Part shown: one piece after another, positions 13,361-44,070 of the stretch
Layout: every line of letters begins with the position of its first letter
Position numbering within the stretch: position 1 is the first letter of the stretch
Source of the DNA: a phage
Reading direction: 5' to 3' (one strand)
Sequence record: PX421306.1
DNA: 64,000 bases
Translations under genes and position numbers: made by a program
Notes under the pieces: model-generated
What the model was told of the DNA's origin: nothing
Databases searched by the model: none
What the model saw: the letters and a program-made list of their open reading frames with translations, nothing else

Positions 13361-13390
13361 TCAAAATGAAGAAAGGGGCCGAAGCCCCTA
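13361..13390 (-). terminator. Terminator after hoc
   Basis: GGGGC-UUCG-GCCCC followed by U-rich tract on minus strand. Confidence 0.65.
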
Positions 13391-13393
13391 AGA

Positions 13394-24339: not shown

Positions 24340-25304
24340 TGTATTCTTTAGAGGAATTTAATAATCAAGCAATAAACGCAGATTTCCAACGTAATAATAT
24401 GTTTAGCTGCGTTTTTGCGACAACTCCATCAACTAAAAGCTCTTCGTTGATAAGTTCAATTAGCAACTTTTCTTATAATAACTTGGGTCTAAATTCAGAT
24501 TGGTTAGGATTGACTCAAGGCGATATTAATCAGGGAATTACCACGCTAATTACTGCTGGCACACAAAAACTGATAAGAAAATCAGGGGTTAGTAAATATC
24601 TTATTGGTGCCATGAGTCAACGTACAGTTCAAAGTTTATTGGGCTCATTTACAGTTGGTACATATTTAATTGACTTCTTTAACATGGCATATAACTCATC
24701 TGGATTGATGATATATTCCGTAAAAATGCCAGAGAATAGATTATCCTATGAAACTGACTGGAACTATAATTCTCCTAATATTCGTATAACTGGGAGAGAA
24801 TTAGACCCTTTGGTTATTTCATTTAGGATGGATTCAGAAGCTTGTAACTATCGTGCAATGCAAGACTGGGTTAATGCTGTTCAAGACCCAGTAACTGGAC
24901 TGCGTGCTTTGCCGCAAGATGTCGAGGCAGATATTCAGGTTAATCTTCATGCTCGTAATGGATTACCTCATACTGCGGTGATGTTCACCGGATGCATTCC
25001 AGTGTCAGTGAGCGCTCCTGAGTTATCATATGATGGAGATAACCAAATAACTACATTTGATGTTACTTTTGCGTATAGAGTCATGCAGGCTGGAGCAGTT
25101 GATAGACAAGCTGCGCTTGAATGGCTTGAATCCGCTGCTATAAACGGTATTCAAAGCGTTCTCGGAAATAGCGGAGGCGTTACTGGACTATCTAATTCGC
25201 TTTCACGACTTAGTAGATTAGGAGGAACTGCTGGAAGCATTTCAAACATTAATACTATGACGGGAATTGTCAACTCGCAAAGTAAAATATTAGGAGCAAT
25301 ATAA
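24339..25304 (+). CDS. 54: Baseplate-tail tube initiator gp54 (321 aa)
   Basis: 321 aa; strong hairpin terminator follows. Confidence 0.92.
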   Translation: MYSLEEFNNQAINADFQRNNMFSCVFATTPSTKSSSLISSISNFSYNNLGLNSDWLGLTQGDINQGITTLITAGTQKLIRKSGVSKYLIGAMSQRTVQSLLGSFTVGTYLIDFFNMAYNSSGLMIYSVKMPENRLSYETDWNYNSPNIRITGRELDPLVISFRMDSEACNYRAMQDWVNAVQDPVTGLRALPQDVEADIQVNLHARNGLPHTAVMFTGCIPVSVSAPELSYDGDNQITTFDVTFAYRVMQAGAVDRQAALEWLESAAINGIQSVLGNSGGVTGLSNSLSRLSRLGGTAGSISNINTMTGIVNSQSKILGAI

Positions 25305-25307
25305 CAA

Positions 25308-25338
25308 TGGGGACCTTTCGGTCCCCATGTTTTTATTT
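25308..25338 (+). terminator. Intrinsic terminator after gene 54 (TGGGGACC-TTTC-GGTCCCCA + TGTTTTTATTT)
   Basis: 8-bp GC stem and U-run. Confidence 0.85.
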
Positions 25339-25623
25339 ACGGAATGAAATAAAAGCAGAAACTGAAGCAACTAAACTGTCTTCAATATAAACTTCAATTT
25401 TTACTGGAGCTTCTGATTCAAATTTACCTGTTACTACACCTTGGAAAATGCTTTCAGTCTGTTCTGGCTTTGAAAAATTTTCAGAAGGAAAAATTCCGAA
25501 CTTTTTATCTGTTCCAAAAATTTTGATAAATTCATCATAAACTGCTTCATTAAAAGCGTTATCAGCAGGAATAACGCCTTCAACTACAAGTTCTTGACCT
25601 AAAAAGCGTAAAGAAGATTTCAT
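25333..25623 (-). CDS. Hypothetical protein (96 aa) downstream of the alt genes
   Basis: ORF with SD GAGGAACA; driven by early-promoter cassette copy A. Confidence 0.5.
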   Translation of the reverse strand: MKSSLRFLGQELVVEGVIPADNAFNEAVYDEFIKIFGTDKKFGIFPSENFSKPEQTESIFQGVVTGKFESEAPVKIEVYIEDSLVASVSAFISFRK

Positions 25624-25631
25624 TTTGTGTT

Positions 25632-25686
25632 CCTCATGTTATGTCAGTAAGATTATTATAACACAATACGAGGGACTTGTAAACTA
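25632..25686 (-). promoter_or_regulatory. Early promoter/leader cassette copy A (stop codon + TTTACA-17-TATAAT + conserved leader + SD)
   Basis: Minus strand: TAG-TTTACAAGTCCCTCGTATTGTGTTATAATAATCTTACTGACATAACATGAGGAACACAAAATG. Confidence 0.65.
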
Positions 25687-27741: not shown

Positions 27742-27744
27742 GAT

Positions 27745-29841
27745 TTATCCTTGAACGAACTTGTAAGGCATGTTTGTAATATCTATGCAAGACGCAATAA
27801 TTCCAAGAGATGATTCTACTTTCTGTTTAACGTTTGATGAAACAAATGATGCAAAGTCAACTCTGTCTTCTACTTCAATATCACCTGTCATTGCAACTAC
27901 TTCGCCGGTTTCCATTAGACGGTCACCGTCATAAATGACTGATTCGGTGAGTTCTTCCGTAGTCATAACTTCAGCTTGAATGAGTTTTGTGTTATTAGAT
28001 GTTGTTCCGTCATTATTAGAAGCATCAGTTATTTTATTAACTTTGACCATCAATCCGCGTGGTAGAATAACTTCAGCTTCTGTTGCTATTCCGAGACTTC
28101 CTGGATATACAACATTAACTTTATGAGCTCCATCAATTGCCCATCCTATTTGAACTTTAACGTATTCAGGATTTTCTTTATACGCTCTTATTTCGCTTGG
28201 ATTAATAGTTATTCCTTCTTCATTTTTATCAACTGTTAATTCATTGCGAACTTCTGGTTCTAAAAGACCAATACCAGCATGTGTAATTCCAAAACGTCCA
28301 AAAATGATAGGAGTTAAAGAAGTAGATACAAAATTTCTGAAATAGAACACTTTATTTTTAACTAGTGCTTCGTATATAGGAGCAGTCATACTTTGAGCAC
28401 GATAAACTGTAATGCCTTCTGGTATACGGTCACCGTTTTCAAAAGCTGAATCTAAGTTATTTATAGCAGATTCAATTTCTTTTTCACTCATTACATCATA
28501 TCGTTCTGGATTGTAACGACCCAAAAGAAGATTATTGATGTCAGTATATCCTGAACCACAATACTCTCTAATGCCGCGCTTTTGTGATGGAGTATATTTA
28601 GAACCATCACGGGCAATAGTAATATCAATCATTGGACCTGCACCAATTCCAGAAAAGCTATAAATCATTCTTTTAAGGAATTTAGTTTTTGCTGCGTTCC
28701 AGGAATTTTTAGTTATTTCTTCCCAGACTTCATCTGGCTGTCCTTTACGGGTTTTATTATGTTTATCAAGCCAATTATCTTTATATTCTTCAAAGAATTG
28801 ATTAACAGCTGCTGCGTATTTCTCTAAACATTTTATTGAAGTGGTTGGTTCATTTTTAATCGCATTAAGAATTACATCTTTAATTTTTTCAGAAACTTCA
28901 TTAACCTCACTTTTTGAAAAGAATTTATAGTCATAGTGAAGTTCATCTGCGGTTCCTTCGGCAATGATTTTTGCTGCCTTAGTTTTAGAAGCTAATGAAT
29001 TAATTCCAAGCTTCATTTCTTCTGCTTCGGGAATTAAAGGAGCTGTAGCAGGTTTATTGAAATTAGCTGCGGTAGATTCATATTTCTGGAATAATTCACT
29101 TTCAAATCTAGAAGATTCCAATGACTGACTTTGCGCAATTGCTCTACGGGAAATTTTAACTTTAACGATTACAGCTTGGTCAGAACGTTTATCGTTTTCT
29201 TGCGCAATAGATGCCGCAATTGCCTCATTTTTAGTTACTTGAGCTCCAGTATCTTTATTGATATAAACATCGCCGACTTTCGATTCAACTTTAGTAAAGA
29301 GCTCGGTACTAATTTCCGGAACTCCTGGAATGTCTTCTAGTGATACATTTTTGCGATGTATAAGAATATATGCATACTTTTTATCGTAATCCCAGAGTTC
29401 CTTAAGAAGGACGTATCTGCCACCTGAACGACTGCGGATAAGTCTATCAGCAATAACTTGAATTTGTCGAGCTTGACCAGCAGTTTTAGACTTAAGAATA
29501 CGAAGCATACAGGCATCAATTTTATACTGACGCATCGTTTGCATCGCAACAGTAAAAACTGAATTGATGTAATTAATTGGGCTTGGACCGAGACCTTTCA
29601 ATTTAGCAATTGAACCTTTAGCAGTTAATGTAAAAGGAACAATGTGCATCATTTTATCGCCCATCTTTAGATCACGGTTAGTATCACCTCCAGATGTATA
29701 GGTACATAAACGAAAGCCTGGTTGTTCAATTGCGTCATCAACATGAACTGAAAAAATTTGTGGTATTTTCTTCTTTGGATTTAAGTTTGTAATCGGAAGA
29801 GTAGTATCTTCGTCAAATAATTCTGTAATGAGTTCCATCAT
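27745..29841 (-). CDS. Alt-family mono-ADP-ribosyltransferase paralog (698 aa)
   Basis: Same N-terminal leader MELITELFD, YRAQ...FVSTSL...EAEVILP; tandem to the 685-aa paralog. Confidence 0.8.
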   Translation of the reverse strand: MMELITELFDEDTTLPITNLNPKKKIPQIFSVHVDDAIEQPGFRLCTYTSGGDTNRDLKMGDKMMHIVPFTLTAKGSIAKLKGLGPSPINYINSVFTVAMQTMRQYKIDACMLRILKSKTAGQARQIQVIADRLIRSRSGGRYVLLKELWDYDKKYAYILIHRKNVSLEDIPGVPEISTELFTKVESKVGDVYINKDTGAQVTKNEAIAASIAQENDKRSDQAVIVKVKISRRAIAQSQSLESSRFESELFQKYESTAANFNKPATAPLIPEAEEMKLGINSLASKTKAAKIIAEGTADELHYDYKFFSKSEVNEVSEKIKDVILNAIKNEPTTSIKCLEKYAAAVNQFFEEYKDNWLDKHNKTRKGQPDEVWEEITKNSWNAAKTKFLKRMIYSFSGIGAGPMIDITIARDGSKYTPSQKRGIREYCGSGYTDINNLLLGRYNPERYDVMSEKEIESAINNLDSAFENGDRIPEGITVYRAQSMTAPIYEALVKNKVFYFRNFVSTSLTPIIFGRFGITHAGIGLLEPEVRNELTVDKNEEGITINPSEIRAYKENPEYVKVQIGWAIDGAHKVNVVYPGSLGIATEAEVILPRGLMVKVNKITDASNNDGTTSNNTKLIQAEVMTTEELTESVIYDGDRLMETGEVVAMTGDIEVEDRVDFASFVSSNVKQKVESSLGIIASCIDITNMPYKFVQG

Positions 29842-29874
29842 ATCCTCTCTAGTGTTTATTCTATTTATAAAATT

Positions 29875-29892
29875 AAAGGCCCGAAGGCCTTT
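29875..29892 (-). terminator. Hairpin between the 62-aa ORF and the alt paralog
   Basis: AAAGGCC-CGAA-GGCCTTT. Confidence 0.5.
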
Positions 29893-30079
29893 AATAATCT
29901 AGTGGTAAGAGAGTACGATATATTTCAAACTTTGGACCTTTTTCGTAGGCATCAAATGTTTCTGTAAATTTATTATAAGCATATGCATCTACAAATTCGA
30001 GAACGATTTGTGATACAGAAGTAGAAACATCTCCACCTTCTTTTTGAGCAACGACAATTGTTTCTAAGTAAGCTTTCAT
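29891..30079 (-). CDS. Hypothetical protein (62 aa), translationally coupled to gene 30 (ATGA overlap)
   Basis: SD GAGGTAA; start overlaps ligase stop. Confidence 0.5.
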   Translation of the reverse strand: MKAYLETIVVAQKEGGDVSTSVSQIVLEFVDAYAYNKFTETFDAYEKGPKFEIYRTLLPLDY

Positions 30080-31539
30080 AGACCAGTTACCTCATGAAAA
30101 TCACCAAATACATCCTCGAATGTATTAGCTTTAGTTTTATCTTCACGTAAACGAATCGCAATTGGAAGAAATAATTTTACGTAATCAGTGCGGCCATCAG
30201 ATTTTAACCAACCGTTGCATTCGCACTCTAGAATTTTTCCAATATAATAATTTTGGTTTTCCATAATGCGAGTACGGTCAAGTTCATGCGATTTTACACC
30301 GGCTTTATCTTTTAAACCTGAACCAGCATTTACTTTAATTTTTCCACACTCTGATTCAAGAATAAATCCACCTGCTTTAGTAGGGTCTTTACGGTGAGGA
30401 TAAATTCCTACAATTTTTAAATCAACATCAATTACTTCTTTAAATTTATAGAGATTTTTTGAACGAGCATTTTCCCACAATCCATCGGTATTTTTGAGAA
30501 TAATACCTTCAAGACCTTGGTCAATATACTTTTTATAAATTACCTTAGCTTCATCTAGGTTATTTACTACCTGGTTTTCAATTAAAATTACTTTATCATA
30601 TCCTGATGTCATTTGTTCTAGTTTAGAAAAACGTACATCATATTTTAAACGAAACGCCGGAAGACCGTATATTTCTACCAACGGGACATAATCCCAGACC
30701 TGAAACTTCATGCATTGAGCTTCTTTTTCAGAAATGGTTCCTTTTAAGGATTTATTGGCGATTCCATTAGAAGTAGTACGAGATTCCGCTACTTCGGCGA
30801 ATTCTTTAGCTTTACTAATTTCAGGATAAGCATCAAAAAGAAAATCTAGGCCTTCTGGTTCCTTTTTAACTTGCTCATGGTATACCAATTCGCCATCAAT
30901 TAACACACCTTCTGGATGAATCTGGCGGGCTTCAGCAGTCATTTTGATTAACTCTTCCTTAAGAAGATCTAATCCTAGATATTCATTACCAGCTCGTGAT
31001 AAAAGACGAACATCATCTAATTCATCGCCTCGGACTTCAGCAAAACACCGAGCTCCATCTGCTTTTAACTGTGCAAAGGCTGGAAATTTGATATTCTTAC
31101 TAATGCCTTTTTCATCATAAGAACTTGCCAGCATTTGAGGTTGTTCAGGAATTAAACCTGGCCAAACTTTGTTTGCAATAGATACTGAAGCACCGCATTC
31201 AAGGTCTCGCATCATAACTCGACGCAAAACTTCAACATCATCCTTTTTACCATCGGTGATATATCCAGTCAATTCCTCAATTGCAGCATTTCCGGTCAAT
31301 TTCCGAGTAGCTAACGTGAATTCAATGAAGTCAAGCATATCGGTAATAGTCAGCATTCCAAAACTCTGGGTAGCAATACCAGGTTTAGGCCATTTCTTGA
31401 TATAATACTGTAACCCACGAGAATAAGTCAGACGATATACCCGTTTAAGCAATTCATTATCTTTATTCTTTTCAAGAATTGCTTGCTTCTGCTTAGTTGA
31501 TCCAATAGATGCTATTTCATTCAGAATTTTAAGAATCAT
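30076..31539 (-). CDS. 30: ATP-dependent DNA ligase gp30 (487 aa)
   Basis: Adenylation motif AQLKADGARC; 487 aa as T4 ligase. Confidence 0.96.
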   Translation of the reverse strand: MILKILNEIASIGSTKQKQAILEKNKDNELLKRVYRLTYSRGLQYYIKKWPKPGIATQSFGMLTITDMLDFIEFTLATRKLTGNAAIEELTGYITDGKKDDVEVLRRVMMRDLECGASVSIANKVWPGLIPEQPQMLASSYDEKGISKNIKFPAFAQLKADGARCFAEVRGDELDDVRLLSRAGNEYLGLDLLKEELIKMTAEARQIHPEGVLIDGELVYHEQVKKEPEGLDFLFDAYPEISKAKEFAEVAESRTTSNGIANKSLKGTISEKEAQCMKFQVWDYVPLVEIYGLPAFRLKYDVRFSKLEQMTSGYDKVILIENQVVNNLDEAKVIYKKYIDQGLEGIILKNTDGLWENARSKNLYKFKEVIDVDLKIVGIYPHRKDPTKAGGFILESECGKIKVNAGSGLKDKAGVKSHELDRTRIMENQNYYIGKILECECNGWLKSDGRTDYVKLFLPIAIRLREDKTKANTFEDVFGDFHEVTGL

Positions 31540-31805
31540 TGCTCATCCTTCAAAGTTTGATTTACAGCTCTATTATAAATCAATTCATCATTAAGCTCAG
31601 TCAAAGACCTATGATATGTAGTTCTAACTTTATTTCCTTGCATCCAATGCTTGATATAAATGAAACCTTGCTCTACACATTTTTTAAAAATTCGTTCGTC
31701 TTTTTGAGCTCGGAATTCTGGATTGCATCTAAAGAATTGATTTACGTGACCGTAATCACGTGTAGTATTACCTTCATTTTCATAAATAGTGTGAACGACA
31801 AACAT
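31536..31805 (-). CDS. 30.1: Hypothetical protein (30.1-like)
   Basis: 89-aa ORF in 30.1 position. Confidence 0.55.
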   Translation of the reverse strand: MFVVHTIYENEGNTTRDYGHVNQFFRCNPEFRAQKDERIFKKCVEQGFIYIKHWMQGNKVRTTYHRSLTELNDELIYNRAVNQTLKDEQ

Positions 31806-32668
31806 TAGAATGCTCCTTGGAAAATATTATCACCACTAGTAAATCTATTAAAATACCCTGCATCACCAGGCTTAGTATAACTCCACGTATGGAATGGATT
31901 CATATGATACGGGTGTGTATAATATGGATTATATTGATGTGTATAATATGGATTATACGGATTAAATCCAGGAGTTCTCCAGGTAGTGTTCCAACGAAAA
32001 GAATCGTTTTTAACCATCTTCTCAATTACATCTTTTATAGCTTTTTCACTATCAAAACTTTCTTTATTTTCCTTCGGTGAAAAAAGCTTATTTTCTACAT
32101 CATTCCATGTATAAACTCGCTGCGCAGTTTTTGGAATATTGTCACGCTCTCCTCGAGCCATCCAATAAACAGGAACATTTAATATTTCACTCGCGTGGTC
32201 ACAGTGGTGAGCGAGATCGTCAATATAACAAATTACGTTATATTTCTCTTTTGCCTTTTTAAACAACTCTTCTTTTGAAGAATCATGACCACACATCATT
32301 ACTTCTGAGAAGGCACCAGGAAAAAGAGCATTCAAATTAAATTGACGATTCAACAGAGCGTCAATAGAATCACCCAATGCTGTAACAGCTACAAAATTAT
32401 AATCTTCTTTTAATTTGTTAATTACACACAGGGCATCTTTATATGGAGACAAGTAACGAATAAAATCTGAACGATTGTATTTTTCAATTAACTTGACGCC
32501 AAGTTCTTCATCACAATTAAAGAGTTTACCTGGAGAAATAAATTTCTCATCTTGGATCATTTTTAAAATATGTTCTAACGGAAGATTATATTTCTGAGCA
32601 AAATAAGGAAGGCCTGATTGCCAGCTTAAACATACTCCATCAATATCAGTCAAAATAGTTGGCTTCAT
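31805..32668 (-). CDS. 30.2: HAD-like phosphatase/nucleotidase-fold protein (30.2-like) with Tyr/Pro/His-rich repetitive C-terminus
   Basis: N-terminal TDIDGV (HAD motif I-like); 287 aa. Confidence 0.65.
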   Translation of the reverse strand: MKPTILTDIDGVCLSWQSGLPYFAQKYNLPLEHILKMIQDEKFISPGKLFNCDEELGVKLIEKYNRSDFIRYLSPYKDALCVINKLKEDYNFVAVTALGDSIDALLNRQFNLNALFPGAFSEVMMCGHDSSKEELFKKAKEKYNVICYIDDLAHHCDHASEILNVPVYWMARGERDNIPKTAQRVYTWNDVENKLFSPKENKESFDSEKAIKDVIEKMVKNDSFRWNTTWRTPGFNPYNPYYTHQYNPYYTHPYHMNPFHTWSYTKPGDAGYFNRFTSGDNIFQGAF

Positions 32669-33123
32669 AGAGAGTCTCTTAATAGGTTTAACACATCAAT
32701 AAATTCAGCTTCGGTTAGTATTGTATCATCTTTTGTTAGACCACTAGCCATGCTGTGCTTCAAAACTTTTCCTTTCGAGGCTTGTAATGCATCACGAAAG
32801 CCCCTGTTTTGGATCGCTGCTTCAAAATATGCATTTGTGTATAATTCTTTCCACGCCGGGGAGTATCTTGAAAACGGAACTCCAAGCCAGAAGAGGGTCC
32901 CACGGTCCTGAGCTCTAGCATAAGACCTTCCAGCTTGTTGGGCGGCAAGCCCGGATAACCCAAATATACGTCTTTGCTGTTCAACATTTTTCACCTTACA
33001 TCCTTGGAGGAATCCTTCGAGACCTCCAAATTGGATACCATCCATAACGAAAGGCCATTGGGCGAAATTGCTTAATGCACATGATGGCCATCTAAAATTG
33101 CTTCTAATCTCTAATTCAGACAT
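32665..33123 (-). CDS. 30.3: NADAR (YbiA-like, DUF1768) domain protein
   Basis: LSNFAQWPFVMDG motif typical of the YbiA/NADAR family; 152 aa. Confidence 0.75.
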   Translation of the reverse strand: MSELEIRSNFRWPSCALSNFAQWPFVMDGIQFGGLEGFLQGCKVKNVEQQRRIFGLSGLAAQQAGRSYARAQDRGTLFWLGVPFSRYSPAWKELYTNAYFEAAIQNRGFRDALQASKGKVLKHSMASGLTKDDTILTEAEFIDVLNLLRDSL

Positions 33124-33331
33124 CTTTAATACTTATAATTTCAACATCAGCCCAATAACCGTAACCCGGTAAACGGTCTTCAATAGATAATCTGCCATCA
33201 TATTTAAGCATTTTAATTGTCATAATATATGGCTCTAAATGGTCTTCTGTGAGAGGAGAAACGTCAGTCACACGATAAGTAACTTCGACCATTTCCGTGC
33301 CCAGTAATTTCTGGATTAATTTCTTAAACAT
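33116..33331 (-). CDS. Hypothetical protein (71 aa)
   Basis: ORF in 30.x cluster. Confidence 0.5.
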   Translation of the reverse strand: MFKKLIQKLLGTEMVEVTYRVTDVSPLTEDHLEPYIMTIKMLKYDGRLSIEDRLPGYGYWADVEIISIKDV

Positions 33332-33335
33332 TTTA

Positions 33336-33623
33336 TTAAAATCTCATCTGAAAACCGTGTGATTTAACATTACCGCCGCCGATATCAGAAATGTTAATTT
33401 CACGCGCAATTGAAGGGTCAATATCAATTTCACGATTGAGTTTAGTGATAGCTAAAGTATCACGCCCATTTACAGTACGGAACTCTAAAGGGCAGACTAC
33501 ATTAACGTAGTTTTTAATTGATTCACTGGTAGGTTGCAAATGAGCAGGAAGGTCTTTAGGTGCCTTAGAGAAAACCACTTCACAGAAATTTTTGCGGGTA
33601 TCAAAATAAGTAGTCATAAACAT
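33336..33623 (-). CDS. Hypothetical protein (95 aa)
   Basis: ORF in 30.x cluster. Confidence 0.5.
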   Translation of the reverse strand: MFMTTYFDTRKNFCEVVFSKAPKDLPAHLQPTSESIKNYVNVVCPLEFRTVNGRDTLAITKLNREIDIDPSIAREINISDIGGGNVKSHGFQMRF

Positions 33624-33664
33624 AGTATTTTCCTCAGTAAGGGGCCGAAGCCCCTCATTTTATT

Positions 33665-34030
33665 TTAAATATCAAATTCGTTAAGAACTACATCAAAGAT
33701 CGCTTCAAGATGCTCAGGTTTAGCTCTGTTACTCAGAATATGACGAATCCAAGTTTTAACCAGAAGCTTACGATTGACGCCATTCCAGCAAGGATGAGTA
33801 CCTAAATCGCGTTGACGGAAATCATCATCTAATGCGATTTTAAAAGAAGAACCTTCTTTCGTGATTGAAACCGTGATGCCATTTTCAAATCGCATATAAA
33901 CGTAGTTAGGAGTCATATACTGTTCAATTTCGCATACTGATCCATTTTGATGTTTCCAAAGGCAGATAGTATCAATAGAACCTGCAATACCATTAGAAAC
34001 ATATTTACGTTCAAAGTTGATGTAGTTCAT
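33665..34030 (-). CDS. Hypothetical protein (121 aa)
   Basis: ORF with SD GGAGAA and upstream early promoter. Confidence 0.5.
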   Translation of the reverse strand: MNYINFERKYVSNGIAGSIDTICLWKHQNGSVCEIEQYMTPNYVYMRFENGITVSITKEGSSFKIALDDDFRQRDLGTHPCWNGVNRKLLVKTWIRHILSNRAKPEHLEAIFDVVLNEFDI

Positions 34031-34098
34031 TTTTATTCTCCGAGATGTTTAATTGCGGTACAGGTATATAATATCATATCCTGTACCAAAGTAAACAA

Positions 34099-34431
34099 TT
34101 ATTTTACTACTTTCCAATGTTGCATGTCAAGTTTACCAACTTTTTTCATCTTCTCAATTAAGCGTTCGGCACGTTGGCGGGCTGTAACATAATACCATTC
34201 ACCCAATTCATTTTGTTCAATTTTTCCAACGATTACTGTATTCAATTCATAAATCCAACCAGTAAAGAAATTATGAACTTGGATTGTAAAGGTGAAATCT
34301 GTTCCCATACCTTCTGTTGTTTCTACTTCAATAATATCACCTTCAACTGCCATTAAGAACCACATAGTTTCATCATATTTACCATTGAAGCATTTAGTTT
34401 TAACTGTAGCGTTCAGATTAATCGTTTTCAT
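34099..34431 (-). CDS. Hypothetical protein (110 aa)
   Basis: ORF with SD AAGGAG and upstream GTTTAC promoter. Confidence 0.5.
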   Translation of the reverse strand: MKTINLNATVKTKCFNGKYDETMWFLMAVEGDIIEVETTEGMGTDFTFTIQVHNFFTGWIYELNTVIVGKIEQNELGEWYYVTARQRAERLIEKMKKVGKLDMQHWKVVK

Positions 34432-34504
34432 TTTATTCTCCTTTGTTTGTGTAAGATAATACTATCACAAAGGAGCCATACTGTAAACAACTTTATGCAA
34501 TCTT

Positions 34505-34537
34505 TGGAAAATAAAAAAGGACTCCCGAAGGAGTCCT
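34505..34537 (-). terminator. Intrinsic terminator after the small basic ORF
   Basis: AGGACTCC-UUCG-GGAGUCCU followed by UUUUUUAUUUU on minus strand. Confidence 0.8.
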
Positions 34538-34541
34538 CAAC

Positions 34542-34718
34542 TTATGCTTTCTGCTTACCAAAACGAGAAGCATCATCTCGAAGAACCGCACGTGCTCGGC
34601 GCATGATCTTCTCAACAGTTTGATTGATACGAGAGTTCGACCCACGCTTGTAACCAGCGCGTTTAGAATCACCAACTTTCTTTTCAACTGCTTTCTTTGC
34701 TTTAGCTTGTTTTGCCAT
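34542..34718 (-). CDS. Small highly basic protein (58 aa from MAKQAKAKK...; track ORF has a longer start)
   Basis: Lys/Arg-rich; followed by a hairpin plus U-run terminator. Confidence 0.45.
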   Translation of the reverse strand: MAKQAKAKKAVEKKVGDSKRAGYKRGSNSRINQTVEKIMRRARAVLRDDASRFGKQKA

Positions 34719-34912
34719 TATAAATTCTCTTTTAAATGAAAATGCAGGACTTATTGGCATTGCCTGCGCAAGCCCTCAAGGGGAACATAGGTTTTATATA
34801 TTTACCGACAGGATAACCATAAACCTCGTCAACATTCAAGAGGTACACCGTAAAACAAAGTTCGACGGCTCCTCGTTTTAACTTCACACTAAGGCAGTGA
34901 CTCTCCAATAAA

Positions 34913-35161
34913 TTACTTCAGTGTTACCACAAAGTGACGAACTGCTTTTCGTGCGGCAGAAGCCAGAGGCTTAGCATATTTAAGTTCATCTTTTTCCTGA
35001 AGCTCAGCAGCTAATGCAGTTTGAGCAGGATTCAGATGTTTGAAATAACGCAGGATTTCAAGTGCTTCGGCTTCAACATCAATAGATGCGCCATAGTTTT
35101 CGTGACCATTATTCCATGCGTTTCGTTGCAGTTCAAGAGCGTGTTGTAATTGTTTAATCAT
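34913..35161 (-). CDS. rIII: rIII lysis-inhibition accessory protein (82 aa)
   Basis: 82 aa, position between 30.x cluster and gene 31. Confidence 0.88.
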   Translation of the reverse strand: MIKQLQHALELQRNAWNNGHENYGASIDVEAEALEILRYFKHLNPAQTALAAELQEKDELKYAKPLASAARKAVRHFVVTLK

Positions 35162-35308
35162 TTAAAAATTCTCGTTAGAGATTAAAACTCGGTAGTCACG
35201 TTCTTCTGAATTTCATCTTCTTTCGACAGATCTCTCAGTTGTAGACTACCACATAGAATTGTTCGGTTAACTTATTATTCCGACACCCAATTCATATTAT
35301 TATTTATA

Positions 35309-35644
35309 TCACTTATAAAGACACGGAATAGCTTTATAGTGACAGGTAACGAATTTTTGTTTAATTTCTTTTGGCTGCTTAAGACCCAGAGCTACAAAAG
35401 GATGAGGAACGTTTCGAATTTGACCAACTGGAAGAGAAGTCAAATCACCAACTTCGCAGAAACCTTCAGGAACATCAGGACCAACAGAGTGAACTACACA
35501 CAGTTCAGGAACTTCACCTTGGACACGTTTACCGATAATAAGTCCTGATTCTGTAACTTCTTCATCACCAGCTTGTGCAGGTTCAGAAACTAAAATAACA
35601 TATTCACCGACAGCACGAATTGGTAGCTGTTGTACTTCAAACAT
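35309..35644 (-). CDS. 31: Co-chaperonin gp31 (GroES analogue, 111 aa)
   Basis: 111 aa, [26 protein letters not shown]... Confidence 0.94.
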
Positions 35645-35700
35645 CGTTTTTCCTTTTTGTTAACAGATGAATTAATAATAACAAATAATTCTTAAAGCAT

Positions 35701-36009
35701 TTATTTACCAATAAATTGAAGCAAATGCTCAACTTTCATACCATTAACGGAAATCAATTTGTCAATAGAAAAACCTCGCCATGCACCAAGCTCAACATCA
35801 AATACTGGAATCATATCAGTAGATTCTTTCCGAGTAGATTCAGTCAATTTACCGGTTTGCATGGTTGGCATAAAGTCTGCATCACGAGTACCTTTCATAG
35901 TACGAATAGTACCATCAGACTTTTCAAAAACCACGTTTGAAATACCCATGGACAATTTAGTTTTCAAAATTTCACGAATTGCTACTTTCTGTTCAGTTGT
36001 CAGTTTCAT
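35701..36009 (-). CDS. 31.1: Hypothetical protein (31.1-like)
   Basis: 102-aa ORF. Confidence 0.55.
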   Translation of the reverse strand: MKLTTEQKVAIREILKTKLSMGISNVVFEKSDGTIRTMKGTRDADFMPTMQTGKLTESTRKESTDMIPVFDVELGAWRGFSIDKLISVNGMKVEHLLQFIGK

Positions 36010-36246
36010 TTATTTACCTATTACAGTTTTAATATGGGTTGTTCCACGTTCTTTAAGAGTGGAAAGCAATTTTTGGCATTTTTCTAAATCAGATTTCCAA
36101 CTATACGGCCTATCAATACAAACCCATTCTGACTTATAATACTGTTTCCATTTAGAGAAAAAATACTTCTTATACTCTACAGCAAATGAAATGTTCTCGT
36201 TAGAATAAGAACTAATTGCTGTGAGCTGTACCAAACGAAATTTCAT
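36010..36246 (-). CDS. 31.2: Hypothetical protein (31.2-like)
   Basis: 78-aa ORF. Confidence 0.5.
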   Translation of the reverse strand: MKFRLVQLTAISSYSNENISFAVEYKKYFFSKWKQYYKSEWVCIDRPYSWKSDLEKCQKLLSTLKERGTTHIKTVIGK

Positions 36247-36827
36247 TATTCACCACAGAATTCGTTGATATTTTCCCAGTTTAACTTATTCAAGTTTTTC
36301 TTAGGAACATTAAACACTTCAATACCTGCATTTCGCAGAATATCATCCCAGCCAGGTTTATTCTTATCGTATGTTTCGCAATAAACCAGCTTTTTAATAC
36401 CAGATTGAGCTATCGCTTTTGCACAATCTGGGCAAGGAGAAAGTGTTACATACATAGTAGCACCTTCAATTGAAGAACCATTTCGCGCAGCAAACAAAAT
36501 CGCATTTAGTTCAGCATGAATTTCATTTTTAGACGACCACTCAGAGTGAGCACTACGATGTTCTTTCGCCAAGACAAAACGATCAGTTGAACCAAATGAT
36601 ACACATTCAGGCTTATGACCTTGAATGATAGTATGTTTAGGCTTATTTAGCAACCAACCTTGCTCAACAGCATAATCGCAGCAATTCACACCACCTGCAG
36701 GTGAACCATTATATCCGGTAGAAATAATACGTCCATTCTTTTCAATTACCGCTCCTACCTTCCAGGAGCAACATTTTGATTCTTGTGATACTAAATATGC
36801 AATTTGAAGTACTGTACTCGCTTTCAT
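36246..36827 (-). CDS. cd: dCMP deaminase (193 aa)
   Basis: Zinc-binding HAELNAI...PCPDCAKAI motifs. Confidence 0.95.
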   Translation of the reverse strand: MKASTVLQIAYLVSQESKCCSWKVGAVIEKNGRIISTGYNGSPAGGVNCCDYAVEQGWLLNKPKHTIIQGHKPECVSFGSTDRFVLAKEHRSAHSEWSSKNEIHAELNAILFAARNGSSIEGATMYVTLSPCPDCAKAIAQSGIKKLVYCETYDKNKPGWDDILRNAGIEVFNVPKKNLNKLNWENINEFCGE

Positions 36828-37162
36828 TTCATAATCACCAGATAAGCAGATTTAGCAGTTTCAACACGATAAATTTCGTGACGAAGTTTAGTTATACTTT
36901 TAATAACAGAACTAATTATATTCTGCCCGTCTTTAAAGCGGTTTTTCTTATCAATAAAAATTGCGCCAACCATCTTTTTGTGAAGCTCAACTGGATACTT
37001 CGTCACAATAATAGCATCATACACAGAAGGATGAATACTGTTCACCAGAGTATCATTCATTAAAGTTATTCTAATGAACTGTGCTGTTTCAGAGTCAAGC
37101 GCTCTATGATCGCCAGTATCATTTTCAAGACAATTATCAATTATATCAGTTAAATTCATCAT
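36824..37162 (-). CDS. cd.1: Hypothetical protein (cd.1-like)
   Basis: 112-aa ORF. Confidence 0.5.
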   Translation of the reverse strand: MMNLTDIIDNCLENDTGDHRALDSETAQFIRITLMNDTLVNSIHPSVYDAIIVTKYPVELHKKMVGAIFIDKKNRFKDGQNIISSVIKSITKLRHEIYRVETAKSAYLVIMK

Positions 37163-37395
37163 AGTACGCCATACACCCTTTGTGCTTCAACTAATCCATC
37201 AAAATCCAATTTGAGATGTGTTATTTGGTCACCATCACCTGGATTCACAATTACTAATACTGAACGAGGAGTTTCGGTAATAACACGAACCGATGTTTCA
37301 GGAAATCGTTCAGAAACCTTATTTACCAATTCCTGAGCAAATAGTTTAACTTTTTCTTGGAATTCTTTAGTAGTAATTGGTTTTTCACTTAGCAT
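37159..37395 (-). CDS. cd.2: Hypothetical protein (cd.2-like)
   Basis: 78-aa ORF. Confidence 0.5.
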   Translation of the reverse strand: MLSEKPITTKEFQEKVKLFAQELVNKVSERFPETSVRVITETPRSVLVIVNPGDGDQITHLKLDFDGLVEAQRVYGVL

Positions 37396-37916
37396 GTTGA
37401 TCCCAGCTCCTTACTTTCAACGTTTTTAACTAATTTGACAGAAACTAATTCGGCATCTTGGGTAATCATTACCGGGCCTTCTTCATACTCTTCAAGATAT
37501 TCTAGAGCTTTCTTTTTAGCTTCTTCCTTCGTATCAGTTTGAGCATAGATATAAAACATACAACCAGTAATACCTACTACTTTCCACTTAATTTCTTTAT
37601 CAGTTTTAATTTCAAATTTACTTGTAGAATCATCTTTTTGAACTTCTTCGAAAAAAGAATATTCTAACATATAAGCAATTGAAAATAACGGGCTAACTTT
37701 ATAGGATTCGCCCATTACATCAACAGCTTTATACCAGCAATCATCAATTTCACGTTTAATGCTAATAACATTTTTCGCAGGATCTATTTTTACTTTAAAT
37801 GAATTTTCCCCAATAAACTGGGCAATTCGTTTATTAGCCCCGCAGGTTTCATTAAAAATATCTTTATACCCAGCTTTAAAGCGATAAACCTTATCTTCTT
37901 CAAACCATTCGCTCAT
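37389..37916 (-). CDS. cd.3: Hypothetical protein (cd.3-like)
   Basis: 175-aa ORF. Confidence 0.5.
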   Translation of the reverse strand: MSEWFEEDKVYRFKAGYKDIFNETCGANKRIAQFIGENSFKVKIDPAKNVISIKREIDDCWYKAVDVMGESYKVSPLFSIAYMLEYSFFEEVQKDDSTSKFEIKTDKEIKWKVVGITGCMFYIYAQTDTKEEAKKKALEYLEEYEEGPVMITQDAELVSVKLVKNVESKELGSTC

Positions 37917-37978
37917 TTCAATTTCCTCATTTGTTTTGGTAGAGCTATAATATCACAACTCTACCTTAAAGTAAACTA

Positions 37979-38254
37979 TTAAATTGCTTTGAATTCTGAT
38001 GTCTGTGATTCAAAGCGAATATCGCCTTTGATGACTAGCTCAGCATCAAAACCGAATACGACAATGATATGCGCGGAACCTGGATACAGCGTAATTGCAA
38101 TAGAATCCACTTGGTCTGGAAGCAAAGCGTTCAATACATGAGTCACCTGAGCATGAATTCGAAGCTCAGCTGCGTTATCAAGCTTTTCAAACATATTATT
38201 AGCAATAATTTGGCTAAACACTACTTCTACGATTTTAGAATAAGTCGGAAACAT
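37979..38254 (-). CDS. cd.4: Hypothetical protein (cd.4-like)
   Basis: 91-aa ORF. Confidence 0.5.
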   Translation of the reverse strand: MFPTYSKIVEVVFSQIIANNMFEKLDNAAELRIHAQVTHVLNALLPDQVDSIAITLYPGSAHIIVVFGFDAELVIKGDIRFESQTSEFKAI

Positions 38255-38256
38255 AT

Positions 38257-38449
38257 TTACCTCACATAATTTTCTTCAAGCCAATCAATAACATCCAACG
38301 CATTATCAAAAGTTGAACCATCTACTTTGTCTTCTGTTTCATAATCAAGAACATCTAAGCCTACTCTTCCATCAACAATAGGCCATAAACAAAATAGATA
38401 TTTCTTTTCTTTTTCAATTTTATCACAAAGCCGATAAATCTTTTCTATG

Positions 38450-38457
<8 letters not shown>
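38257..38457 (-). CDS. cd.5: Hypothetical protein (cd.5-like)
   Basis: 66-aa ORF. Confidence 0.5.
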
Positions 38458-39850
<1,393 letters not shown>

Positions 39851-39854
<4 letters not shown>

Positions 39855-40087
39855 TTATTTTTCTCAACTAATGATTGAATATAATCATGCAGGTCTTTAG
39901 ATGCTTTACCCCACTTATTTTGATATTCATTTTTAAGATTAGCACGTGATTGAGCTAATAAAACATCATTGGTTGGAGGTAAAGATTCTAATCGTTGAAT
40001 CTGGCGTCCATAAATCATTGCAGCCATCTCGGATTCATAAATCAATCCTTTGAGATGTTCAAATTGATGCCATGAAATCATTTGCAT
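39851..40087 (-). CDS. Hypothetical protein (78 aa)
   Basis: ORF between pseT.1 and spanins. Confidence 0.5.
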
Positions 40088-40377
40088 TTATCCTCTTTTA
40101 ACTCTTGGCGATAATAACATATCATAGTTTTTTGGTCATGTACATATCGTTTTACATCATTAAGCCAAATACGAAATTCCTGGGAATCTTCGAATGGCAT
40201 ACCGACCCAAGCTTTACCATCAATAACTTTAACTTGCCAGGATAGTTTAGCTTCATCATATGACTTTATCTGCACAGGCCAATTAGGATGAACTGTTTCT
40301 TTCTTTACTTCTAGAGGCTTTGTCGAACAACCAACTAGAAGACCAATAGATAATATTACTGCTGATAGTTTAATCAT
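40078..40377 (-). CDS. pseT.2: Outer-membrane spanin (o-spanin, lipoprotein; lipobox LLVGC)
   Basis: Signal peptide plus lipobox Cys; 99 aa; follows i-spanin. Confidence 0.75.
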   Translation of the reverse strand: MIKLSAVILSIGLLVGCSTKPLEVKKETVHPNWPVQIKSYDEAKLSWQVKVIDGKAWVGMPFEDSQEFRIWLNDVKRYVHDQKTMICYYRQELKEDKCK

Positions 40378-40727
40378 TTAGAAAGGTCCTGGATGTCTTC
40401 TGCGAACTTGTTGAAGGAGTTGTTGATTTGTTTTTCAACCAATCCTGGCTTATGAGCCACCACATCCGCCTTCTTTGCGTCTTTGCGCAGTTTTTCATTT
40501 TCACGCTCAATAGCAGCAATTGCCTCACGATTTTTATTATTCATCGCATCAATATAATTATACTGAATTCGCAAATTATCTAATGCTAAAGCGTTTTCAT
40601 TGGCCGTTTTTGTAATTTCTACAACAGACGTTTCTAATCTTTCAATTTTACTTTTTAAAATTAAAGAAGTTCCGCCCAATGCAATTACAATTAATAGCAA
40701 GCCTGCTGTCGTATTATTTAATTGCAT
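40374..40727 (-). CDS. pseT.3: Inner-membrane spanin (i-spanin; N-terminal TM plus coiled coil)
   Basis: N-terminal hydrophobic helix GLLLIVIALGG and coiled-coil periplasmic domain; 117 aa. Confidence 0.75.
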   Translation of the reverse strand: MQLNNTTAGLLLIVIALGGTSLILKSKIERLETSVVEITKTANENALALDNLRIQYNYIDAMNNKNREAIAAIERENEKLRKDAKKADVVAHKPGLVEKQINNSFNKFAEDIQDLSK

Positions 40728-41221
40728 AAAGTTTTAATAACCTCTATAATATCGTCTTGAGAAAGACCGTTAATTAAAATATGATGTTCAGCAGGAGATT
40801 TAGAAATTTTAAAGCATGCCTCAACATCTTCTGCCATATCTGATGCGCTACGATTTGGATTACTAATTCCAAGACGATGTTTTCCCGTTAAAGGATTAAC
40901 GATGATATAACATTTACAGTTGTTAATATGAACATTAGGTTGAGTCTGATTAATGAACACATCACAATCATATTTCGCAAGCTGATTTTCTAAAAAGACT
41001 TTCATCTCCTCAACTGCGTCAGGAAGCATATCACGGGCTTGCTCAAGACGACGATTTCGATATTCTTTAATGGTCGTTTTCCGCTTGACTTGCTTAGCTA
41101 AATCTTTCTTAAGATCGGTGATATATCCAACTCGACGATTTCCTTTAAATACAGAAATCCCATCTGTAGTATCACCGTATGCTTCAACGACCATCTCAGT
41201 AGTAATAAGCTGCAAATCCAT
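40718..41221 (-). CDS. alc: Alc, host transcription unfolding/termination protein (167 aa)
   Basis: 167 aa at T4 alc position. Confidence 0.8.
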   Translation of the reverse strand: MDLQLITTEMVVEAYGDTTDGISVFKGNRRVGYITDLKKDLAKQVKRKTTIKEYRNRRLEQARDMLPDAVEEMKVFLENQLAKYDCDVFINQTQPNVHINNCKCYIIVNPLTGKHRLGISNPNRSASDMAEDVEACFKISKSPAEHHILINGLSQDDIIEVIKTLCN

Positions 41222-41229
41222 CATAAAGT

Positions 41230-41285
41230 CCTCATGTTATGTCAGTAAGACTACTGTAACACATCACGAGGGACTTGTAAACAGC

Positions 41286-41288
<3 letters not shown>
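41230..41288 (-). promoter_or_regulatory. Early promoter/leader cassette copy B (near-identical to copy A) upstream of alc
   Basis: Minus strand: TAA-GCTGTTTACAAGTCCCTCGTGATGTGTTACAGTAGTCTTACTGACATAACATGAGGAC; about 90% identical to copy A over 53 nt. Confidence 0.65.
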
Positions 41289-42873
<1,585 letters not shown>

Positions 42874-42900
42874 AATAAAATGGGCCTTGCGGCCCACTCC
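42874..42900 (-). promoter_or_regulatory. Structured translation initiation region of denA: SD GGAG separated from AUG by an 18-nt hairpin (UGGGCC-GCAA-GGCCCA)
   Basis: Minus strand TAA-GGAGTGGGCCGCAAGGCCCATTTTATT-ATG; GNRA-type loop. Confidence 0.5.
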
Positions 42901-44070
42901 TTAAAAATATTTTTTAAAACTCATCATAACTTTATCATCAACATCATTATCAATCTGTGCAACAAGGTAAGATGACAGTTCTACTTCTTGTGGCGCTGAT
43001 TGAACATTATCAGAATTAAGATATTCACGAATCCAAGGATACGGATGTTTAACCGGAGCATCAGTAATTGGGCATGGAAGACCGCACTGTTTCATACGAG
43101 ATACAGTTAAGTAATCAATAAAGCTCCACATGCTATTTGTATTTAATCCAGGAACATCGCCATCTTTAAATAAATGAACTGCCCAGTCTTTTTCTTGACG
43201 GTTAACTTCCATGAAAATATCAACTGCTTCTTGTTCACACTCTTGGGCGATTTTAACCCATTCATCACCATCAGTGCCAAGCTGAAGTTGACGAATAATA
43301 TATTGGGTGCCTTTAAGGTGTAGCTGTTCATCACGAGCAATGAACTTCATAATCTTGGCATTACCTTCCATGATTTCCATGTTTTTGTGGAAGTTAAATG
43401 TACACGCGAAAGATACGTAAAAACGAATAGCTTCCAGAGCGTTGATTACATGAAGGCAAAGATAAAGAGATTTCATTAATGCTCGTTTAGTACATTCAAC
43501 AACTTTGCCTAACTCTTCTTTACGAAATCCTTCTGATAAAATTCCTTCATAATCTTCAACCGCATTCTGATATTCACGAGTCTTAACTAGAACGTCATCA
43601 TAATAACGACCAATAGATTCAGCACGTTTCATGATAGCTTTATCTAATACAATCTCATCAAATACCTTTGACGGATCAGTATAAAGATTTCGCATAATAT
43701 GAGTATATGAACGGCTGTGAATAGTTTCACTAAAAGTCCATGTAGCAACCCATGTATCAAGGCTTGGGTCTGAAATTAATGACATAAGTACAGCAGACGG
43801 TGCACGACCCTGAATGCTATCTAGAAGTGATTGATACTTCAGGTTATTAGTAAAAATATCCTGCTGATATTGAGGAAGCTTATTAAATTGTGCAGCATCC
43901 ATCATCAAGTTTACTTCTTCAGGACGCCAGAAAAATGACAACTGCTTTTCGGTTAAATCTTCAAAAACTTTATGACGTTGAATATCATAACGCGCAATAC
44001 CAAGACCTGAACCGAAGAACATAGGTTCTTTTAAAACATCAACTGGATTTGTATTAAAAACTGTGCTCAT
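42901..44070 (-). CDS. nrdB: Ribonucleotide reductase beta subunit NrdB (389 aa), uninterrupted
   Basis: Di-iron/tyrosyl radical family, continuous ORF. Confidence 0.96.
   Translation of the reverse strand: MSTVFNTNPVDVLKEPMFFGSGLGIARYDIQRHKVFEDLTEKQLSFFWRPEEVNLMMDAAQFNKLPQYQQDIFTNNLKYQSLLDSIQGRAPSAVLMSLISDPSLDTWVATWTFSETIHSRSYTHIMRNLYTDPSKVFDEIVLDKAIMKRAESIGRYYDDVLVKTREYQNAVEDYEGILSEGFRKEELGKVVECTKRALMKSLYLCLHVINALEAIRFYVSFACTFNFHKNMEIMEGNAKIMKFIARDEQLHLKGTQYIIRQLQLGTDGDEWVKIAQECEQEAVDIFMEVNRQEKDWAVHLFKDGDVPGLNTNSMWSFIDYLTVSRMKQCGLPCPITDAPVKHPYPWIREYLNSDNVQSAPQEVELSSYLVAQIDNDVDDKVMMSFKKYF

Follow-up and report, generated by a model that had tools for sequence, protein, structure and literature searches.

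A probable early promoter between rnlA and alc of T4-like phages lies within a conserved hairpin that may mask the alc ribosome-binding site on read-through transcripts

Main finding

In T4-like phages the short gap between rnlA (RNA ligase 1) and alc (inhibitor of host transcription) is occupied by a predicted early promoter and a leader that together can fold into one hairpin, and the pairing of this hairpin is retained across genera with different arm sequences. The hairpin was overlooked in the initial annotation of the locus, which described a duplicated promoter and leader. Of all properties of the element it is both the best conserved and the most informative. Our best explanation, held with moderate confidence and resting on comparative and folding analysis, is that the early promoter is nested in a structure that would silence the alc ribosome-binding site (RBS) on transcripts of other origin. 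The DNA analyzed here, called the window, is a 64,000-nt stretch of a phage genome (PX421306.1). It belongs to a Tequatrovirus and is 100% identical to Escherichia phage vB_EcoM_P8 across the 601 bases compared around the site.

The rnlA-alc junction and its promoter

The minus strand from 41288 to 41222 reads TAA GCT GTTTACAAGTCCCTCGTGATGTGTTACAGTAGTCTTACTGACATAACATGAGGAC TTT ATG (in the wider reading GGATAC TAA GCT GTTTACAAGTCCCTCGTGATGTGTTACAGTAGTCTTACTGACATAACATGAGGAC TTT ATG ATG GAT), so the initial annotation was right in placing the element directly after the rnlA stop codon; the range it gave, 41230-41288, is accurate to one or two bases, the repeat proper being 41282-41229. Its gene names are also correct: vB_EcoM_P8 is annotated with RNA ligase 1, protein Alc, then two spanin genes and pseT, and the Alc ORF matches the PHROG inhibitor of host transcription with E = 3.6e-82. 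It is Alc that stops host transcription in T4 infection. The gap between the two genes is 61 bp, and the 3' end of alc overlaps the i-spanin gene (40374..40727). The junction is kept in the Tevenvirinae genera and in the Bragavirus examined, and is absent in Ac42 and Cronobacter phage S13. Short similarities of the alc start to alt or gene 30 (repeat families D8 and D20) are, by a rough estimate, at the level expected by chance for AT-rich DNA. The features of the locus are as follows.

41286..42446, minus strand: rnlA (RNA ligase 1, gene 63), ORF of 386 aa
41286..41288, minus strand: rnlA stop codon TAA, with three bases (GCT) between it and GTTTAC
41282-41229, minus strand: copy B, a cassette of 54 nt lying between the stop of rnlA and the start of alc
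41276..41282, minus strand: -35 element, G + TTTACA (T4 early form GTTTAC), invariant in 34 alc cassettes from several genera
41265..41276, minus strand: outer 5' arm of the hairpin, AAGTCC-C-TCGTG, the anti-Shine-Dalgarno segment, in the -35/-10 spacer and upstream of the predicted start
41253..41261, minus strand: extended -10, TGT TACAGT (TG 41261-41260, hexamer 41258-41253), 17 bp past TTTACA
41246, minus strand: predicted transcription start, at the A within conserved CTT[A]C and 7 nt past the -10
41226..41236, minus strand: outer 3' arm CATGAGGACTT (RNA CAUGAGGACUU), part of the leader, holding the Shine-Dalgarno sequence GAGGA
41229..41233, minus strand: Shine-Dalgarno (SD) sequence GAGGA of alc, 4 nt ahead of the first ATG
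41224-41222, minus strand: alc start codon ATG
40718..41224, minus strand: alc, inhibitor of host transcription, ORF of 168 aa, the first gene served by the cassette

TTTACA begins four bases past the rnlA stop codon and is followed by a 17-bp spacer and TGn-TACAGT, which bears out the initial reading of a T4-type early promoter and leader directly in front of alc. From the start that we infer at 41246, the 5' UTR of alc would be about 22 nt. In a consensus scan copy B scores 9/12 plus TG (TTTACA-17-TACAGT). Promoter-like hexamers occur in the AT-rich window at chance density (29 found, 26.2 expected), so a consensus match alone is weak proof. Across 34 distinct rnlA-alc spacers GTTTACA, several positions of the -10 region and the T of the TG are invariant, the G of the TG is nearly so, and a CTTAC(A)C motif, with its A 7 nt past the -10, is present in most cassettes and most genera. 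One public record carries the annotation that the element resembles a T4 early promoter; the T4 records examined have no annotated promoter features. According to the supplement of PMC9697503, T4 alc, alt.-3 and pseT.2 give early RNA and early protein, pseT.3 early RNA and middle protein, and rnlA early RNA and late protein, while the RNA of alt.-1 and alt.-2 is middle. Taken together, the copy B site is very probably an early promoter, and sequence evidence makes promoter activity a strong expectation. The initial annotation had the element drive alc and the spanin genes. This fits the layout, in that the cassette abuts alc and the terminator-like site scan predicted no terminator between alc and the overlapping spanin genes, which it would serve.

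A second copy in front of alt.-3

A near-identical cassette, also reported initially, is found between alt and alt.-3.

25686-25684, minus strand: alt stop codon TAG, the last base of which is the G of the copy A GTTTAC
25684-25631, minus strand: copy A, between alt and alt.-3, 49/54 positions identical to copy B (repeat search, family D7)
25683-25678, minus strand: -35 element TTTACA of copy A
25660-25655, minus strand: -10 hexamer of copy A, within TG-T-TATAAT
25635-25631, minus strand: Shine-Dalgarno sequence GAGGA of copy A
25333..25623, minus strand: alt.-3, 96 aa, of unknown function, preceded by copy A

The alt gene upstream of copy A encodes 685 aa, and the alt.-3 transcription unit is closed by a convergent hairpin terminator at 25307-25328. 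The variable region alt/alt.-1/alt.-2 is next to copy A. The two copies share an identical 5' segment of 17 nt (GTTTACAAGTCCCTCGT) and an identical 3' segment of 21 nt (CTTACTGACATAACATGAGGA), so that the -35 and leader are indeed the same in both; each segment occurs at just these two places in the window, and shuffled sequences gave 0.00 and 0.20 matches, respectively. A 67-nt query hit 999 places in 500 phage records, with two places per record among the matches listed, T4 and T2 included. The repeat is hence shared by the genus and not particular to this phage. A flank-anchored scan of IMG/VR for variants of copy B added just L013, a GC-rich locus that matches by chance and is unrelated.

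The difference in the -10 (TACAGT in copy B, TATAAT in copy A) is real. In T4 one of the 54 positions differs between the copies, and TATAGT is the -10 of both, as is the case in most of the relatives compared. Copy A scores 11/12 plus TG (TTTACA-17-TATAAT), and the initial prediction that copy B is the weaker promoter is a guess from 9/12 versus 11/12 that applies to this phage only. Upstream of the copy B -35 there is no A/T-rich UP element, CCCAGAAGGATACTAAGCT being rnlA coding sequence, and just a short A-run (CTAAAAAG) precedes the -35 of copy A.

The promoter is enclosed by a stable hairpin

As RNA, the region 41276-41226 of copy B folds with a minimum free energy of -24.3 kcal/mol (z = -3.0), and only 1 of 200 shuffles folds as well; the corresponding values for copy A are -18.4 kcal/mol and z = -2.5. 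For about 12 nt the promoter spacer is complementary to the part of the leader with the alc SD, and the extended -10 and the predicted start sit in the inner, loop-proximal part of the hairpin. Pairing in copy B runs three pairs (AAG with CUU) beyond the 3' end of the repeat into alc-specific sequence, where copy A has a C-A mismatch, which suggests that the arm evolved in the alc context. No family of Rfam 15 matched at gathering score in 24000-43000 of the window.

An intrinsic (Rho-independent) terminator was considered and is rejected on sequence: the stem is followed by UAUGAUGG with no U-run, the tail is A-rich in other genera, and neither cassette copy was called in the window scan for terminator-like sites (no T-run).

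Pairing is conserved across genera

We compared the rnlA-alc spacers of 12 annotated phages of other genera and of 41 IMG/VR loci retrieved with an Alc protein profile. A hairpin with different arm sequences is located at the same place in 10 of the 13 sequence groups, which include Tequatrovirus, Gelderlandvirus, Jiaodavirus, Karamvirus, Bragavirus, Dhakavirus, Winklervirus, and Kagamiyamavirus. The 10 groups follow a common plan, with the 5' arm after GTTTAC, TGnTAnnAT in the loop, and the 3' arm ending a few bases before ATG; the rnlA stop often overlaps the -35 as TAGTTTAC. Thus AUCUCCGUUUAGU pairs with ACUAAACGGAGAU in Gelderlandvirus, AUCCUCAUCAG with CUGAUGAGGAU in Jiaodavirus-like phages, AACCUCUCAUUUU with AAAAUGAGAGGUU in Bragavirus, and AUCCUCAUUUUGUUG with CAACAAAAUGAGGAU in Kagamiyamavirus.

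The conservation of pairing was measured in three ways. First, each spacer segment was paired, free of any alignment, against the leader of its own cassette and against those from other groups: cognate duplexes average -14.6 kcal/mol versus -7.2 kcal/mol for non-cognate ones, and none of 20,000 permutations was as good. Second, an alignment made by MAFFT only of 12 cassettes of equal geometry contains a 13-bp helix with 96.2% of cells paired, both-side changes in 4 of the 13 pairs, and one pair position at which four standard pair types occur; the covariation score is 0.280 versus 0.126 in shuffles (0/500 reach it), and slid controls pair at 33-53%. Third, a covariance model built from this 12-cassette seed retrieves the cassettes of the remaining groups, and in the model-fitted alignment of 34 distinct cassettes 94.2% of cells pair (slid controls 38-51%), with both-side changes in 13/13 pairs. 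The stems are almost all Watson-Crick; by our tally, G-U accounts for about 10 cells of the model-fitted alignment and A-C for 3. We consider it very likely that the hairpin is a selected structure.

These results bear on the initial reading of a duplicated promoter, in the form that the copies are just a repeat and their self-complementarity plays no role. Two near-identical copies do exist, and the chance density of promoter-like hexamers also agrees with that reading. It is disfavoured by compensatory changes that keep pairing at the same position across several genera and by a fold more stable than shuffles, and the alignment-free duplex test argues against an alignment artefact. We regard a functionless repeat as highly improbable.

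Comparison of the two strands gives a mixed picture. The Tequatrovirus sense fold (-23.9 kcal/mol) is clearly better than the antisense fold (-14.6 kcal/mol) and its stem has G-U pairs, while over the 34 cassettes the mean sense-antisense difference is -0.8 kcal/mol and sense is better in 20/34. Sense/antisense folding, clear in Tequatrovirus and mixed elsewhere, thus leaves the choice between an RNA-level and a DNA-level role undecided.

Predicted masking of the SD on read-through RNA

Partition-function folding yields a large difference between the two kinds of RNA that could carry alc. The probability that the copy B SD is unpaired is 0.66 in the promoter-initiated RNA (22-nt leader) and 0.01 in an RNA begun 120 nt upstream. 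The values for T4 are 0.60 and 0.00, and in most other genera 0.4-0.75 for promoter-initiated RNA versus 0.00 for read-through. The promoter-initiated leader itself is predicted to be partly closed in copy A (0.16) and in Bragavirus (0.01-0.15).

Read-through into the cassette is plausible because no terminator-like site was seen on the minus strand from 44097 to the cassette and because in T4 the middle promoters PI-TevIII (138939), PnrdB (139878), and PnrdA (142726) lie upstream (PMC2988021 Table 1). The same table gives P30 at 127234, upstream of alt.

From these data we propose that a sigma-70 early promoter and a 5' leader are packed into the rnlA-alc gap and built as a hairpin, which would act as follows. 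RNA begun at the internal promoter would lack the 5' arm and have a free RBS, and alc would be translated from it immediately after infection. Transcripts arriving from nrdA/nrdB/denA/rnlA, in T4 served by middle promoters as well, would contain both arms, fold, and hide the alc RBS. If masking depends on mRNA origin in this manner, Alc synthesis depends on where the mRNA starts and not only on whether alc is transcribed. The effect on translation is modelled from predicted accessibility, and we put the chance that masking on read-through transcripts is the main role of the hairpin at about even.

The proposal can be tentatively extended to a more general one, which we think possible and somewhat short of probable: an anti-SD in the early-promoter spacer would be a conserved insulator device of T4-like phages, in which translation is set by the promoter of the mRNA, and Alc (in Tequatrovirus also Alt.-3) would be confined to the first minutes despite later transcription through the gene. 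To our knowledge, the confinement of Alc synthesis to the first minutes has so far had no explanation from the alc control region.

Exceptions and other early promoters

The whole SD lies inside the 3' arm in 8 of the 10 hairpin-bearing groups (8/13 overall). In the two others, L046/L062 and Kanagawavirus L023/L051, the stem encloses the -10 and leaves 2-5 nt between its end and the SD, for which a half-open state (P ~0.45) and no masking are predicted. There is no spacer-SD pairing in three groups: in Mosigvirus and in L064/L065 the spacer contains just a small hairpin of its own, and L063 is without a convincing stem. Some stem-loop is thus present in the promoter in at least 12 of the 13 alc cassette groups. 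In Gaprivervirus one finds instead a terminator downstream of rnlA, and a partial duplicate of alc.

We also examined eight early promoters of the window, five of which (both cassette copies included) have an inverted repeat enclosing or overlapping the -10.

50390, 41281, 37975, 34095, and 25683: starts of the early promoters with a stem at the -10

A sixth (34487) has its stem in the spacer, and here spacer-leader pairing reaches the SD as it does in the alc and alt.-3 cassettes; other early promoters of the window have inverted repeats around the -10 that fall short of the SD. When cognate and non-cognate duplexes were compared for the eight promoters, 177 of 5040 permutations did as well; the 3' segments used excluded the -10 and with it the beginning of some arms, so that this count is uninformative and the individual folds are relied on. 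Hairpins at early promoters may have a broader role, of which masking of the SD would be a frequent special case.

A rival explanation comes from the promoter early stem-loop (PeSL). By its definition a PeSL runs from an upstream stop codon through a promoter of the sigma-70 type, with a stem-loop at one of five positions, to an SD and start codon (PMC2839356), and has the PST/T4 promoter consensus TTTACW-N17-TAYWAT (Arbiol et al. 2010, PMC2839356; Comeau et al. 2014, PMC4122927); termination or attenuation has been suggested as the function of its stem-loop, and the motif as a place where modules are shuffled (PMC2839356; PMC4122927). By analogy, the alc stem-loop could stop, pause or process polymerase or RNA coming from rnlA, alc and the downstream genes would be transcribed mainly from their own promoter, and the overlap with the SD would be a by-product of the short leader. 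One PeSL stem-loop is reported to have reduced lacZ expression to the same degree as did the rrnB T1 terminator, and PeSL stem-loops are mostly between the -35 and -10 or over the -10 (PMC2839356). The stems at six of the eight window promoters agree with an attenuator, as does the greater frequency of a stem-loop in the alc promoter (at least 12/13 groups) than of a covered SD (only 8/13). However, the alc hairpin has no U-run and was not terminator-like in the scan, the PeSL stem that was tested is the G/C-tract stem of RB49/phi1, unlike the alc arms, and the 3' arm spans the whole SD in 8 of the 10 hairpin-bearing groups. We therefore consider an attenuator unlikely as the main function, and keep masking of the RBS as the preferred reading.

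Origin of copy A and exchange of modules

Also in Dhakavirus, Kagamiyamavirus, Gaprivervirus, Mosigvirus, Marfavirus, and Karamvirus, the alt.-3 homologue has TAGTTTAC or GTTTAC in front of it. Its promoters in these six genera have a small hairpin within the spacer (for example CACCACAAGGAUGUGG) and no spacer-SD pairing, and the element is not copied from the alc cassette of the same phage. As the alc-type hairpin is found only at alc in other genera, copy B looks native and copy A derived. The word "duplicated" in the initial annotation thus calls for some qualification. Most likely, to judge from this distribution, the original promoter of alt.-3 was overwritten by a copy of the alc cassette in the Tequatrovirus lineage, and copy A would have arisen before the divergence of the sampled Tequatrovirus genomes.

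Within a genome copies A and B differ by 0-5 nt across seven genomes, and by 0-1 nt in four of the seven; these genomes were picked by an exact 17-mer in the 3' arm and the sample is hence biased. Ongoing homogenisation was not seen in the seven genomes, the mean A-B difference being 2.14 within and 2.10 between genomes, and continuing gene conversion between the copies is on these numbers unsupported. Judged by sequence comparison, copies A and B are old and conserved. Modules are shared elsewhere, too: in a Dhakavirus-like contig alc and alt.-3 have an identical 28-nt leader with differing spacers, and the same 28-nt leader is also located at a third gene in other Dhakavirus-like contigs.

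The inverted repeat might act at the DNA level, either as a cruciform or hairpin that shows the -10 in an extruded loop and tunes the early promoter, or as a site at which early-gene cassettes preferentially recombine, in the manner of PeSL shuffling. The stems are nearly all Watson-Crick with no steady strand bias between genera, the same promoter/leader modules are found at unrelated early genes (alc and alt.-3 in Tequatrovirus, the 28-nt leader in Dhakavirus-like phages), and PeSLs recombine into mini-circles (PMC2839356), all of which would suit this role. Yet recombination requires homology and not self-complementarity, which leaves the covariation of the arms within a cassette unexplained. 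In addition, the Tequatrovirus stem has G-U pairs with a sense RNA about 9 kcal/mol more stable than the antisense, the seven genomes are without ongoing homogenisation, and we know of no precedent for a hairpin-dependent sigma-70 promoter. A DNA-level role appears improbable to us, and we continue with the masking of the RBS in RNA.

Comparison with known systems and significance

As a promoter, the alc element resembles the T4 early promoters Pe (PMC2988021) in its -35 (GTTTAC/TTTACA), its TGn extended -10, and an immediate-early downstream gene, and differs from them in that copy B has no UP element and a -10 (TACAGT) two steps from consensus. A promoter and a repeat of this kind are ordinary for T4-like phages.

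The cassette shares with PeSLs an intergenic location that extends from an upstream stop codon as far as the SD and start codon of the gene that follows, a stable stem-loop (the helix 41276-41226 encloses the -10), repetition in the genome, and modules common to different early genes. Unlike PeSLs, there is no AT-rich stretch from the stop to the -35 (GCT only in copy B, nothing in copy A), the alc stem is not made of a G-tract and a C-tract and is without a terminator-like tail, its 3' arm is the RBS, and the cassette keeps its place across genera between two widely shared genes (rnlA and alc) and not beside variable ORFans. Neither alc nor rnlA is mentioned in the text, figures aside, of PMC2839356 or PMC4122927.

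A third comparison is with T4 e, soc, 49, and I-TevI, where hairpins mask the RBS on long transcripts and an internal late promoter TATAAATA, or a middle plus a late promoter, is present (PMC3014915). In both cases the SD is paired in RNA started upstream (at alc by prediction backed by covariation), an internal promoter gives a translatable RNA without the 5' arm (at alc from a predicted start), and the structure is kept in relatives. The alc promoter, in contrast, is an early sigma-70 promoter with the anti-SD in its spacer, the cassette has no TATAAATA, and translation is delayed in those genes whereas at alc it is predicted to be confined to early-promoter transcripts. The list of RBS-sequestering hairpins in PMC3014915 does not contain alc, and no description of an anti-SD in a promoter spacer, conserved by covariation at alc, was found in the accessible literature, a scope outside which older subscription papers fall.

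If the masking reading is true, an element of about 60 bp sets both the timing of alc transcription and which transcripts are translatable, an early-promoter case is added to a mechanism so far documented for late T4 genes, and PeSL stem-loops, hitherto assumed to be terminators, gain a concrete function. The cassette is then also a compact, testable part that combines a promoter with a read-through-proof RBS, and its two copies show regulatory modules being copied between unrelated phage genes. By analogy, the alc cassette appears closest in mechanism to the hairpins of e, soc, 49, and I-TevI, and in its layout it corresponds to most of the PeSL definition.

Stem-loops at other candidate early promoters

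Besides copies A and B of the promoter/leader cassette (upstream of alt.-3 and alc, respectively), the early-promoter pattern GTTTAC-N17-TGnTAnnAT yielded six candidates in the window, all on the minus strand and given below by the position where the promoter begins, and most of them also carry a stem-loop. At three of these (50390, 37975, and 34095) the predicted stability ranges from -16 to -19 kcal/mol.

54405, minus: candidate promoter; no convincing stem
51103, minus: candidate promoter; hairpin within the spacer
50390, minus: candidate promoter; stem-loop encloses or overlaps the -10
37975, minus: candidate promoter; stem-loop encloses or overlaps the -10
34487, minus: candidate promoter; spacer CTCCTTTG pairs with CAAAGGAG, the Shine-Dalgarno (SD) sequence of a 110-aa ORF (34099..34431)
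34095, minus: candidate promoter; stem-loop encloses or overlaps the -10

Given this frequency, stem-loops look like a common property of the early promoters of the window.

Leaders and gene starts in related phages

In one Dhakavirus-like genome (IMGVR_UViG_2706795356_000001; comparison loci L083 and L085) alc and alt.-3 are preceded by an identical 28-nt leader, CTTACACAAACATGAGGAGAACATTATG, which in other contigs (L084 and L087) also stands before a third gene (MINTFRKYGEMKV...). The leader is the same but the promoter spacers of these genes differ, which suggests an exchange of leader modules among early genes. In the Mosigvirus phage PhAPEC2 (L014), alc is annotated as starting at 641, a position that overlaps the rnlA stop; read from there, the gene crosses a clear GTTTAC-TGCTACTAT promoter. 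A start at 704 (ATGAATATGCAA, with GAGGAG just before it) agrees with the other genera, and the annotated N-terminal extension is therefore probably wrong. The rnlA-alc gap of Gaprivervirus holds an intrinsic terminator followed by a 78-aa ORF that resembles the N-terminal part of Alc (phage VR7, L015, 388-704; also L038, L039, and L066). The SD of this ORF likewise lies within a hairpin (GGUUCCAUCA paired with UGAUGAGGACC), inside which the GTTTAC promoter is absent.

The start of alc shares short stretches of similarity with gene 30 (41102-41129 vs. 31240-31267; GYITD.KKD in both proteins) and with the alt paralogues (41124-41149 vs. 27288-27313 and 29382-29407). At 77-86% identity over 26-28 nt for all pairs, they are by rough estimate at chance level for AT-rich DNA of such length.

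Terminator-like hairpins and alt paralogues

25307-25328: perfect 9-bp G+C-rich hairpin, ATGGGGACC TTTC GGTCCCCAT, between convergent gene 54 and alt.-3
13370-13397 and 33636-33663: repeated AAGGGGCCGAAGCCCCT hairpin, repeat family D19, 86% identical
25684-27741, minus: full-length alt (ADP-ribosyltransferase) paralogue, 685 aa
27745-29841, minus: full-length alt (ADP-ribosyltransferase) paralogue, 698 aa

The first hairpin scored as terminator-like on both strands, with a clearly T-rich tail only on the plus strand; with this hairpin as terminator, the alt.-3 unit would be a monocistronic early transcript. The D19 hairpin looks like a shared terminator-type stem-loop. The two alt paralogues form a tandem pair, seen as repeat families D1, D6, and D17 with a spacing of about 2094-2097 nt. 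T4 has a single alt, and the remnants alt.-1 and alt.-2 occupy the position of the second alt copy of the window; the C-terminal ...KKFKM-stop that precedes copy A of the cassette is also kept by T4 alt.-2.
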